A stretch of 64,000 bases of DNA from Sulfolobales archaeon (GTDB lineage: Archaea; Thermoproteota; Thermoprotei_A; Sulfolobales; NBVN01), in NCBI GenBank assembly GCA_038841535.1, contig JAWBTQ010000002.1, forward strand, positions 64,001 to 128,000. The letters are read 5' to 3'. The translations under genes and the position numbers were made by a program. A model generated the notes under the pieces. That model was not told where the DNA came from and ran no database searches. It saw only the letters and a program-made list of their open reading frames with translations. Positions 45,041-47,846 of the stretch are shown piece after piece (the first letter of the stretch is position 1; each line of letters opens with the position of its first letter).

Positions 45041-46168
45041 TCAGCACACCCTATAATACCTAACCTTTCGCCTTCCCTTGGACTTAAACTCGCTGCACAC
45101 TTTACCCATCTCCTCCATCGACTCTAGGACCTTATAGATTCCGCGAAGGGAATAAGCGGGAAAAACCTTCCATACTTCGTACGCCGTAGCCTCCCCACTT
45201 CTCTCTAGTACGCGAATTATCTCTTTACGCACATCTTTATCTGCCTTCCTGCTAGCCGAAAGAGGTCTAAAGCCCATAGTTACGACTGCTATGGAGTTCC
45301 CCATGTTTTCGGCTACAGTGTAGGCAGATGCGGATAGAGACTTCGTTTTGACTCCACTTTTCCAGAGCCTCACCAAGGAGTTAAACGCTTCATCCCTACT
45401 TATCTCGACGAGCTTGATCGACCTAGCGAACTCGGGTAGAATGAGGTTCTTCACTCCTTTAATCGAGGTAGCCACTACTTCGTAGGATGCGTTTACACCC
45501 ACATCCTCTAGGTCTCTAAAGCCCTTCCAGATCGAGTAAGCTAGCAATCCTGTCCTCGCTGGAACAACTACTCTATCTACTCTAAGCCTCCTCTCATATA
45601 TCTCGAGAGCGATAGTTTTCAGCCCCTCCACAGTGAGAGGGGTTGCGTAGCCTAATAGGGAGGCCTTCCCATTCTCGCCGAAGACCAGCTTCACATTCCC
45701 GGTTCGCAACAGTATGTCTACATCTAAGTAGTCAAGCGATAAAGGATCCTCCACGACTACTTCGACAGAGGAGACTCCGTTAAGGTAGTAAGCGAGGGAG
45801 TAGGTGAAGTCTTCCTCGAACTTCGTTCTAATGGTTACGAATCCCTTTGAGAGTACGTAGCTCGCTATGACGGAGGAAGCTCTATCAGAGTAAGTGCCTG
45901 TGGGATTGTAACGCTCGTTTTTGACTAGCACTCCTCCAACAGTGTTTACTGGAGTCAACCCCTCTCCCTTCGAGATAACCTTCTCTAATTTAGGTAGCAC
46001 AGACCTGTATCTCCAAATGCCCGGCCCTGCTCTTTCCACTCTAAACACTCCATACGGGTACTTGAAGACCGTAAGCCACCCACAACTCGGGCAGGTAAAG
46101 ACCTCTTCGCTGTACGCTCTTCCACACTTTCCGCAGACCAGCAATTCCTGAGCTACTGCCGTACTCAA
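45041..46168 (-). CDS. Threonine-synthase-fold pseudoenzyme with N-terminal Zn ribbon and C-terminal winged HTH
   Basis: CGKC..CPSC, IWRY, GEGLTP, NPTGTYSDR (catalytic K to S), EGLKT, wHTH TAYEVWK..SLRGIYKVL..GRRKVRYY. Confidence 0.8.
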   Translation of the reverse strand: MSTAVAQELLVCGKCGRAYSEEVFTCPSCGWLTVFKYPYGVFRVERAGPGIWRYRSVLPKLEKVISKGEGLTPVNTVGGVLVKNERYNPTGTYSDRASSVIASYVLSKGFVTIRTKFEEDFTYSLAYYLNGVSSVEVVVEDPLSLDYLDVDILLRTGNVKLVFGENGKASLLGYATPLTVEGLKTIALEIYERRLRVDRVVVPARTGLLAYSIWKGFRDLEDVGVNASYEVVATSIKGVKNLILPEFARSIKLVEISRDEAFNSLVRLWKSGVKTKSLSASAYTVAENMGNSIAVVTMGFRPLSASRKADKDVRKEIIRVLERSGEATAYEVWKVFPAYSLRGIYKVLESMEEMGKVCSEFKSKGRRKVRYYRVC

Positions 46169-46179
46169 GGCTAGGACCG

Positions 46180-46788
46180 CTACTTCCTCACTAACGAGAC
46201 CATGTACTCGTACAGTCTTGTGTCTCCTGAGATCTCTGGATGGAACGTTACAGCGAGAACATTATTCTGGATAGCCACCGTACCCACTTTACCGATATCT
46301 GGGTGGTCGAGATAGCCCACTATCCTCGCATCACCCCAGGCTTCAACTATCGCAGGCGCTCTTATGAAGACCGCCCTCACAGTGCCTATTCCATCGACGA
46401 AGACCTCCGTTTCAAAAGACTCTCTTTGTCGGCCGAAGGCATTTCTTCGTATAGCTATATTCATCAACTCGAGGAGAGGTTGCCCTGTCTCGCCAACCAC
46501 TCTATCTACTACTTTCTTAGCTAGGAGTACTGCCCCAGCGCAAGTCCCCATTACAGGCTTTCCTTCTCTCGCTAGGTCTGCGATAGCTACGTCCATTCCC
46601 GTGACTCTCATTAAACTACCTATGGCGGTAGACTCGCCCCCGGGTATGATCAGAGTATCTATACCTACTAAGTCTCTAGGTGACTTAACCGGTACAGCCC
46701 TAACCCCGCTGAGCTCGGAAAGCAACTGCAGGTGCTCTAGGAAGTCTCCCTGGAGGCTCAGCACTCCGACTACTACCAAGTTACTCAC
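46180..46788 (-). CDS. pdxT: PLP synthase glutaminase subunit
   Basis: [35 protein letters not shown]. Confidence 0.97.
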
Positions 46789-47794
46789 CCCTCACTTGCA
46801 TGAGCTCCTCCGGCTTCAGCCTCCTCACGTCCATCCCCGTCATTGAGGACCTCTCGGAAACCATTTTCTGAGCTTCGGCAACGATCTCCGGGTCGTCGTA
46901 ATAGGTAGTAGCCAGTACTATAGCTCTAGCCCTAGCCTCCGGGTCTGAGCTCTTGAAGATCCCAGAGCCCACGAAGACCCCATCGGCCCCCAACCACATC
47001 ATGAGCGCAGCATCTGCCGGTGTAGCGATGCCTCCAGCAGCAAAGTTTACGACGGGCAGTCTACCGAGTCTCGCAGTAAGTAGAACTAGTTCATAGGGAG
47101 TCTTGTTCTCCTTCGCGTATACCCAAAGAGCCTCGATGTCTCTCGATGTGTAGTATCCTTTCAGTGTTGCGATATCTCTATTAACGAGCTTCATGTGCTT
47201 TACTGCCTCCGCAACGTTACCCGTACCGGGCTCTCCCTTCGTTCTTATCATAGACGCTCCCTCAAATATTCTCCTCAGTGCTTCCGGGAGGTTTCTTGCT
47301 CCGTTCACGAACGGCACTCTAAACTCCCACTTGTTAATGTGGGCTCTCTCGTCTACTGGAGTGAGGACCTCGCTCTCATCTATGAGGTCTACACCTACCT
47401 CTTCGAGCAGCCTTGCCTCCTCGGTGTGCCCTATTCTGCACTTAGCAGATACGGGTATTGTAATAACATCCGTAACTCTCTGAATGACGTCCAACCCAGC
47501 CGTTCGGGCAACACCTCCAGATACCCTGACGTCGTAGGGGAGCTTATCGAGGACCATGACACCCACAGCACCAGCGTCTTCAGCTATTTCAGCCTGCTTC
47601 TCGCTAGTGACATCCATTATTACTCCTCCCTTAAGCATTGACACGAAGCCTAGCTTAACCAGAGTACCCCCTAACTTAATAAGCGGGAGCGAACCACCCT
47701 CCGCAGAAGACCTATCCCTAAGTTCCAGTAGTTGGTATATCAAGTCGCGAAGCTTCTCGATAAATACGTAAGAGTCAGTGAGCTTCACTTGCAC
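46781..47794 (-). CDS. pdxS: PLP synthase lyase subunit
   Basis: [49 protein letters not shown]. Confidence 0.97.
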
Positions 47795-47823
47795 ACCGCC
47801 AGTATAGCTTTCGGCCTCCCTGA

Positions 47824-47846
47824 AATAACTGTTATTGAACGTTCAA
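47824..47846. promoter_or_regulatory. Overlapping inverted repeats upstream of pdxS (candidate operator)
   Basis: Perfect palindrome TTGAACGTTCAA (47835-47846) and AATAAC-T-GTTATT (47824-47836), 30-52 nt upstream of the pdxS start. Confidence 0.55.

Follow-up and report, generated by a model that had tools for sequence, protein, structure and literature searches.

A lysine-less threonine-synthase-fold protein encoded with pdxS and pdxT is a predicted vitamin B6-responsive regulator in a Sulfolobales archaeon

The 64,000-nt window analysed here (contig JAWBTQ010000002.1 of a Sulfolobales archaeon, positions 64,001–128,000) contains three closely packed genes on its minus strand: pdxS and pdxT, for the two subunits of pyridoxal 5′-phosphate (PLP) synthase, and a third gene, here called X (45041–46168; 375 aa), which encodes a zinc ribbon, a threonine-synthase-fold (ThrC-fold) domain without the Schiff-base lysine, and a C-terminal winged helix. 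The locus raises the question of what a protein of this architecture does in a vitamin B6 operon. We propose, with a probability of roughly 0.75, that X is a one-component, B6-responsive transcription factor that would act at a 12-bp palindrome upstream of pdxS and thereby control pdxST. From comparative sequence evidence, it is highly probable that X recognises this palindrome and governs pdxST, and probable, at lower confidence, that it responds to a B6 vitamer. An enzyme-derived one-component regulator had been put forward in a preliminary description of this DNA, and that reading is supported. Specific DNA binding by X has the backing of three comparative results: the palindrome occurs with X, relocates to transporter promoters in genomes without pdxS, and co-varies at its centre with residue 346 of the protein.

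The enzyme-like part of X is a fold-type II (PALP) domain (residues 66–286; 45311–45973, minus strand, as are all features of X below). It matches Pfam PALP (PF00291) weakly (E 9.5e-14, 51.8 bits), and X lies under every curated ThrC cut-off: its best NCBIfam match is the PRK05638 threonine synthase model (NF004170; 105 bits vs. a cut-off of 421), and it scores 25.4 bits on TIGR00260 (cut-off 167.1). A single-sequence search of the Protein Data Bank (PDB) gave E-values of only 0.02–0.1, so that profile and fold searches were needed; a profile of the X family retrieved ThrC only (6cgq, E 5.6e-12), and the best Foldseek matches of an AlphaFold model of X (60 relatives, pLDDT 89.1) were all threonine synthases (2zsj_A, E 5.3e-14, TMq 0.59). 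When the translation is aligned to solved ThrC, the fold landmarks that had been reported (GEGxTP, NPTG..DR, and EGLKT) are all recovered, as GEGLTP at residues 68–73, NPTGTYSDR at 88–96 (vs. NPTGSFKDR in ThrC), and EGLKT at 181–185. The three reported departures from the enzyme also hold in these alignments: Ser94 (codon 45887–45889) occupies the Schiff-base lysine position; FEEDF (residues 117–121; 45806–45820) replaces the S-x-G-N substrate loop (ASxGN in the preliminary description), with EEDF opposite S-T-G-N of ThrC; and PARTG (residues 203–207; 45548–45562) replaces the Gly-rich phosphate loop, with ARTGL opposite GNAGN. The N-terminal CxxC...CxxC zinc ribbon (C12, C15, C26, C29; 46082–46135) has three invariant cysteines (C12, C26, and C29), and C15 is kept in at least 90% of members. 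A homodimer prediction of X with PLP scored 0.10 against a mark of 0.42 and was used neither for nor against dimerisation.

These features belong to a family. A sequence search with X returned 95 clusters, all with E-values of 1.4e-53 or lower; their members come from broadly defined Sulfolobales, Acidilobaceae, Ignisphaera, Pyrodictiaceae, Fervidicoccaceae, Hyperthermus butylicus, and Conexivisphaera. Counted by hand over the 351 genomes of the class, with an orthologue at E ≤1e-40 defining an X-bearing genome, X is present in 87 genomes from seven families, and the family alignment has 35 invariant columns. Loss of the lysine is not unique to the window genome: among 81 full-length members, position 94 is Ala in 48, Ser in 24, Val in four, Leu in two, and Thr, Ile, or Gly in one each, and Lys in none. 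N88, P89, Y93, D95, and R96 are invariant in the same members; D120 is found in 75 and F121 in 76; P203 and G207 are found in all 81 and T206 in 72, and position 205 is Glu in 44. T297, kept in 80 of the 81, aligns by eye with the Thr of a TG-x-G motif in Lys-bearing ThrC-like sequences, a residue that presumably contacts the pyridine ring. Substitutions conserved across the family argue for selection on a pocket without aldimine chemistry, rather than decay, and X is best described as a Lys-less ThrC-fold protein that would be unable to form the PLP internal aldimine. A separate ThrC-like gene in the same genome (L003:1339-2418) keeps NPTGSFKDR and scores 248.8 bits on PRK06450, under the cut-off of 301; X is therefore not the sole ThrC-fold gene of the genome, and the idea that X is its only ThrC was ruled out.

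The C-terminus of X (residues 303–375; 45044–45262) had been read as a winged helix-turn-helix, and structure prediction, fold matches, and sub-threshold Pfam matches agree. The AlphaFold model has three helices and a beta hairpin (helix-helix-helix-strand-strand) at residues 303–374, and the domain modelled alone (44 relatives, pLDDT 84.4) resembles the winged helices of TFE-alpha, PadR, LmrR, PerR, and TA0346 (TM 0.64–0.78; TMq 0.64 for 4ejo_A, a PadR protein, and 0.66–0.78 for LmrR entries). Among 44 family domains, 24 matched TrmB, 23 PadR, and 18 FUR, all below threshold; PadR (PF03551) gives 13.8 bits on X itself (E 0.059, vs. a gathering score of 27) and E <0.1 in 23 of the 44 relatives, the best being 1.6e-4. 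The domain scans of X gave no GntR match. A profile of the winged helix, searched against 1.84 billion representatives, yielded 54 matches at E ≤0.001, of which the strong ones are members of the X family. The modelled recognition helix (residues 341–353, LRGIYKVLESMEE; 45110–45148) has invariant L341 and Y345 and includes K346 (45131–45133), which co-varies with the operator centre. The wing hairpin (45044–45097) bears two conserved cysteines: C358, present in 66 of 81 members, and C375, the last residue, present in 68. Neither is kept in the divergent subgroup whose operator has the AGCT centre. Their role might be structural, as a disulfide that stabilises the hairpin, or that of a redox switch.

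The candidate operator is a perfect 12-bp palindrome, TTGAACGTTCAA, at positions 47835–47846 upstream of pdxS. It occurs once in the 1,564,232-bp genome, even with one mismatch allowed, whereas chance alone would give about 0.12 exact copies. At no more than two mismatches, it lies upstream of pdxS in all 33 X-linked regions, the window included (13 exact, 13 with one mismatch, and seven with two), and in all five genomes in which pdxS and X are unlinked (0, 1, 2, 1, and 0 mismatches). By contrast, it was found in none of 35 pdxS-bearing genomes that lack X, in which 400–650 nt upstream of pdxS were searched and the best match had 3–5 mismatches. The 33 aligned upstream regions have the consensus TaTTGAACGTTCAAyAAnnnTTAa, with yAA-nnn-TTAa following the palindrome, and in 32 of them the distance between operator and start codon stays within a 10-nt range. 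Exact copies are present in 35 of the 87 X-bearing genomes vs. 11 of 264 X-lacking ones (9 of these 11 sites being inside open reading frames, ORFs), and a reversed control pattern occurs in 17 of the 351 genomes. PdxS (E ≤1e-40) is encoded in 58 of the 87 X-bearing genomes and in 109 genomes without X. Linkage of X to pdxST, expected for a regulator of these genes in the preliminary description, holds in 34 of 46 fetched X loci (30 with pdxS-pdxT-X and four with X-pdxS(-pdxT)); at the remaining 12, the flanking DNA that was fetched contains no pdxST.

Two overlapping perfect inverted repeats had been reported upstream of pdxS, and both are present in the window. The second, AATAAC-A-GTTATT (47824–47836, minus strand), overlaps TTGAACGTTCAA and covers the likely TFB recognition element (BRE; CAATAAC) and a TATA-like box, TTATTT (47823–47828, minus strand), to which we assign a presumed promoter role. 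Outside the window, its palindromic symmetry survives solely in the four closest relatives (L036–L039), and elsewhere the position holds an A/T-rich TATA-like box. The second repeat was thus ruled out as a general second operator.

The operator also changes with the protein. In a divergent X subgroup (33–34% identity; G027, G030, G031, G074, and G077), K346 is replaced by T, A, or S, and the operator position of the pdxS promoters is occupied by TTGAAGCTTCAA, TTGAAGCTTCAG, or TTGTAGTTTCAG. Among 39 regulator–operator pairs, all five with a residue other than K or R at 346 have an AGCT or AGTT centre, whereas 33 of the 34 with K or R have an ACGT centre and one has ATGT; the operators for the L025 and L026 rows, GTGAACGTTCAA, were taken from the aligned upstream regions. 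Both operator/X types occur inside genus g14, and both inside genus g21; the operator therefore follows the X subtype, not the host.

The exact palindrome is not confined to pdxST promoters. Its 36 occurrences in X-bearing genomes comprise 23 before pdxS (including that of G156), eight before transporter genes, one before X itself (G173), and four elsewhere. The candidate importers marked in this way are energy-coupling factor (ECF) S-components of PF07155 in G119, G174, and G241 (L142:2050-2772, L145:1208-1957, and L027:684-1433), a divergent ABC binding-protein/permease pair in the g17 genomes G042, G045, and G052 (L137:2001-3443 and 278-1945), and an APC permease in the g19 genomes G061 and G065 (L140:2056-3426), with a one-mismatch site in a third genome. 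One-mismatch sites were counted solely where exact sites in sister genomes confirm them, as for this permease (G061/G065). In G241, the S-component directly follows X, together with an ABC ATPase, and pdxS is elsewhere in the genome. No PdxS-family match was found in any of five lineages tested, represented by 98–99% complete genomes, nor in G119 or G174 (for G119, confirmed by a family search); the candidate-importer genomes, with the exception of G241, are all without a PdxS match. PdxU and PdxU2/HmpT belong to PF07155, and P5PA to PF13531; excerpts of a 2023 survey of B6 pathways give these as the only characterised prokaryotic B6 transporters (PMC9997740); bacterial PdxR regulons contain pdxST, pdxK, and pdxU, according to excerpts of a second study (PMC5320631). 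The importers behind the palindrome in relatives that lack PLP synthase are predicted to be B6 transporters, and an operator that passes from biosynthetic to importer genes on loss of the pathway is what would be expected of a B6 regulon. One of the four sites elsewhere (G193) is about 45 nt before the start of an M20 peptidase gene (L147:1970-3154), and the others are at L136, L146, and L148; these off-theme palindromes may be chance sites or further regulon members.

In the mechanism proposed here, the ThrC-fold domain, being without aldimine chemistry, would serve as the sensor, and the C-terminal winged helix as the DNA-binding output. A dimer of X would probably bind TTGAACGTTCAA, adjoining the BRE/TATA region of the pdxS-pdxT-X promoter, so that transcription of the PLP-synthesis genes would be tied to a cellular B6 vitamer, most likely PLP bound non-covalently; PLP or another vitamer is favoured on account of the regulon and the retained pocket residues. 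Because X lies inside the operon, it would also regulate itself, and in relatives without PLP synthase the X–operator pair would control importer genes instead. About 46 nt separate the end of the operator from the likely pdxS start, and in this interval are an A-rich CAAyAA, a TTAa/TTATTT box, and GGTG near −8. Given the usual positions of BRE and TATA elements in archaeal promoters, a T/A box that acts as the TATA element would put the transcription start about 10 nt ahead of the start codon, and the palindrome would abut the BRE with an overlap of about two bases. Ligand-bound X could act as a repressor that hinders TFB/TBP; alternatively, apo-X could act as an activator that recruits TFB/TBP, like bacterial PdxR, which activates pdxST until PLP accumulates. 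The two modes are about equally probable, with a slight lean to activation because the operator is just upstream of the presumed BRE and barely overlaps it.

Three other explanations can be set against a B6-responsive regulator. X could act at the palindrome in response to a different effector (O-phosphohomoserine, threonine, serine, or a PLP–amino-acid adduct), by which B6 supply would be tied to amino-acid status. The rebuilding of both the Gly-rich phosphate loop and the S-x-G-N loop would suit such a ligand, as would the membership of some importers in “amino acid permease” and ABC solute-binding families; however, the regulon is centred on pdxST and PdxU-family ECF components, it is reduced to one or two importers in genomes without PdxS, as for a vitamin, and T297 is almost universally kept, so we regard a non-B6 effector as unlikely. 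A second alternative is that X does not read the palindrome and is a PLP carrier, a storage protein, or an accessory protein of PLP synthase, with a winged helix for protein contacts; in one version, another regulator, such as the HTH-ThiN protein encoded elsewhere in the window, would occupy the operator.

Such an accessory role would agree with the predicted co-transcription of X with pdxST and with a conserved N-terminal extension of PdxS in X-bearing genomes. It would not explain why the palindrome accompanies X where pdxS is absent or unlinked, why it adjoins X directly in G241 and G173, or why its centre changes with a recognition-helix residue of X, and it also has to contend with a winged-helix profile that is nearly restricted to the family (54 matches at E ≤0.001 among 1.84 billion representatives); we judge it very improbable. 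The least credible explanation, to which we give almost no weight, is that X is a functionless, decaying threonine-synthase paralogue. Low scores on family models (105 bits vs. 421) are what decay would produce, but reading frames are intact in 87 genomes of seven families, 35 columns are invariant, and the genome has a separate Lys-bearing ThrC-like gene with NPTGSFKDR; decay is refuted by this conservation.

Several observations nevertheless weigh against X as a B6-responsive regulator at the palindrome. Binding to DNA, dimerisation, ligand identity, and the direction of regulation are all inferred here, and the operator–promoter geometry is a guess. The degenerate phosphate loop and the acidic residues E119, D120, and Glu205 (44 of 81 members) may disfavour a phosphorylated ligand, so that a vitamer without the phosphate, or some other compound, could be the effector. 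Two complete g17 genomes (G041 and G044) encode X but have no palindrome at ≤1 mismatch. The PdxS proteins of X-bearing genomes form their own high-scoring subgroup, and the palindrome-pdxS-pdxT-X cassette may have been inherited as a unit in related genomes; the co-occurrence counts consequently overstate independence, and the co-variation of residue 346 with the operator centre may reflect a single evolutionary event. PF07155 includes riboflavin transporters too, and the substrates of the palindrome-marked transporters are predictions. Four of the 36 exact sites (G032, the second site in G180, G193, and G265) fit no B6 theme. One-mismatch sites in G060 and G176, which precede genes for an MFS carrier, a radical-SAM protein, and an APC permease, are no commoner than the reversed control pattern (5 vs. 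9 and 5 vs. 5).

The fusion of a ThrC fold to a winged helix is not unique to the X family. In PRK05638-type proteins of Thermoprotei (433–460 aa), Arg takes the place of the Schiff-base lysine (NPTGSFRDR), and the C-terminus is a winged helix of the PadR type (PF03551; for P0096 and P0098, E 3e-9 to 1e-10). They are encoded in other genomes at L126:2053-3354 (447 bits on PRK05638, cut-off 421), L127:1800-3182, L129:1896-3206, L132:1527-2885, and L134:1971-3329. At all five loci, a gene for 241–265 aa lies 51–69 nt downstream; the four tested are all PF07155 ECF components, 39–54% identical to those behind the X palindrome, and an inverted repeat, TTAAAG-N-CTTTAA, which differs from the X palindrome, is situated between the two genes. 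Both X and the PRK05638 type have the zinc ribbon, the ThrC fold, the C-terminal winged helix, and no Schiff-base lysine, and both adjoin the PF07155 S-component family. The PRK05638 type differs in keeping A-[ST]-D-G-N, in its strong PALP match (228.7 bits for P0096 vs. 51.8 for X), and in having Arg, rather than Ala or Ser, at the equivalent of position 94; X, at 105 bits vs. 421, is not a member of PRK05638 (NF004170).

An unrooted tree of 34 sequences (16 of the 95 X clusters, seven PRK05638-type proteins, and 11 Lys-bearing ThrC; P0098, which is partial, and P0099, P0104, and P0107–P0109 were left out) recovers X as monophyletic (100/100) and places X and the PRK05638 type on one side of the branch to Lys-bearing ThrC (100/100). 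On this placement, the fusion and the loss of the lysine are probably older than X, which would be the more derived branch; a single fusion event would be compatible with the unrooted tree. The curated name “threonine synthase” for PRK05638 is probably wrong, and the PRK05638 type is probably a sister regulator family. Whether the two together constitute a Thermoproteota-wide class of ThrC-derived, Lys-less B6 sensors, an archaeal counterpart of PdxR, we consider evenly balanced.

X resembles known regulators in design, not in parts. MocR keeps its PLP lysine, whereas X has no Schiff-base lysine and, unlike MocR, has an N-terminal zinc ribbon. Both have a one-component layout of a PLP-enzyme-like domain and a winged helix, but in MocR an N-terminal GntR winged helix is joined to a fold-type I, aminotransferase-like domain, and in X a C-terminal PadR-, TrmB-, or Fur-like winged helix is joined to a fold-type II (ThrC) domain. 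ThiR, in which a vitamin-enzyme domain (ThiN) fused to a helix-turn-helix (HTH) controls the synthesis and uptake genes of that vitamin, and RbkR (riboflavin kinase and HTH) follow the same design of a vitamin-enzymology domain plus HTH; their folds are unrelated to X, and X derives from a vitamin-using enzyme, not a vitamin-making one. With ThrC (PDB 2zsj, 6cgq, and 1v7c), X has in common the fold (Foldseek E 5e-14, TM ~0.6) and the motifs GEGxTP, NPTG..DR, and EG.KT, and it differs in the loss of the Schiff-base lysine, the S-x-G-N loop, and the Gly-rich phosphate loop, and in the added winged helix. PadR-family winged helices (4ejo; LmrR, 3f8b) resemble that of X (TM 0.64–0.78), which is C-terminal and without the PadR C-terminal dimerisation helix. 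Since each of ThrC, MocR, and PRK05638 has a defining feature that fails in X, X is a member of none of them; it most likely represents an undescribed archaeal family of one-component regulators that sense a vitamin through an enzyme-derived domain. The predicted X regulon resembles PdxR regulons as given in excerpts of the literature (pdxST and the B6 importer gene pdxU; PMC5320631), where MocR regulators are stated to be “not present in Archaea.” The excerpts of the 2023 survey name PdxR and PdxR2 as the only regulators and describe B6 transporters as an open puzzle (PMC9997740). A full-text literature search, in which main-text passages were covered, returned no description of X or of the PRK05638 type as a regulator.

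As to the operon itself, X had been placed as the third gene of a tight pdxS-pdxT-X unit, which is confirmed by the coordinates and by family scores: pdxS (46781–47794, minus strand), which encodes the lyase subunit of PLP synthase, reaches 456.9 bits with the NF003215 model (cut-off 395), and pdxT (46180–46788, minus strand), for the glutaminase subunit, 170.3 bits on TIGR03800 (cut-off 105.55). The two genes overlap by 8 nt, and 11 nt separate pdxT from X. The ORF of pdxS starts at 47794, but the likely start is GTG at 47788 because relatives align from residue 3 and a Shine–Dalgarno-like GGTG (47794–47797, minus strand) is 6–9 nt upstream; the 33 aligned upstream regions have a conserved “ggg.g” column block at the GGTG position. 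Four runs of RNA data were compared with the locus: two of the three raw-read runs gave no reads and the third gave one, none over the promoter, and the contig run gave eight short pieces at 93–99% likeness that did not cover the promoter.

The window PdxS has an N-terminal extension of about 40 aa (residues ~1–40) that is conserved in X-bearing genomes. In a PdxS search, the 48 best matches, all from X-bearing genomes, align from residue 1–4, and the alignments of PdxS from other genomes start at residue 6–42 (about 1e-120 to 1e-141). Either the whole cassette is inherited together, or the extension may be functionally coupled to X. In another locus (L168, G156:C77:7700-10700), the pdxS upstream of X matches as three segments that are not in one reading frame, suggestive of a frameshift in the gene or of a misassembly. 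Plus-strand ORFs of 76–160 aa (e.g., 45921–46151) lie antisense to X, pdxT, and pdxS and are probably non-coding shadows of the opposite genes.

In the main-text passages covered by our literature search, no archaeal B6 regulator was found. If X is one, it would represent a convergent solution, in which a different PLP-enzyme fold was stripped of its catalytic lysine. The 12-bp operator would provide a handle for predicting regulons, B6 auxotrophy, and candidate importers in uncultured thermophiles. There is also a consequence for annotation: a curated NCBI model probably calls regulators threonine synthase, which affects reconstructions of amino-acid pathways. Should X and the PRK05638 type prove to form one class, their operators would mark archaeal B6 importers, with PdxU-like ECF components, an ABC binding-protein system, an APC permease, and perhaps MFS carriers as the candidates, and would likewise mark B6-auxotrophic hot-spring archaea.

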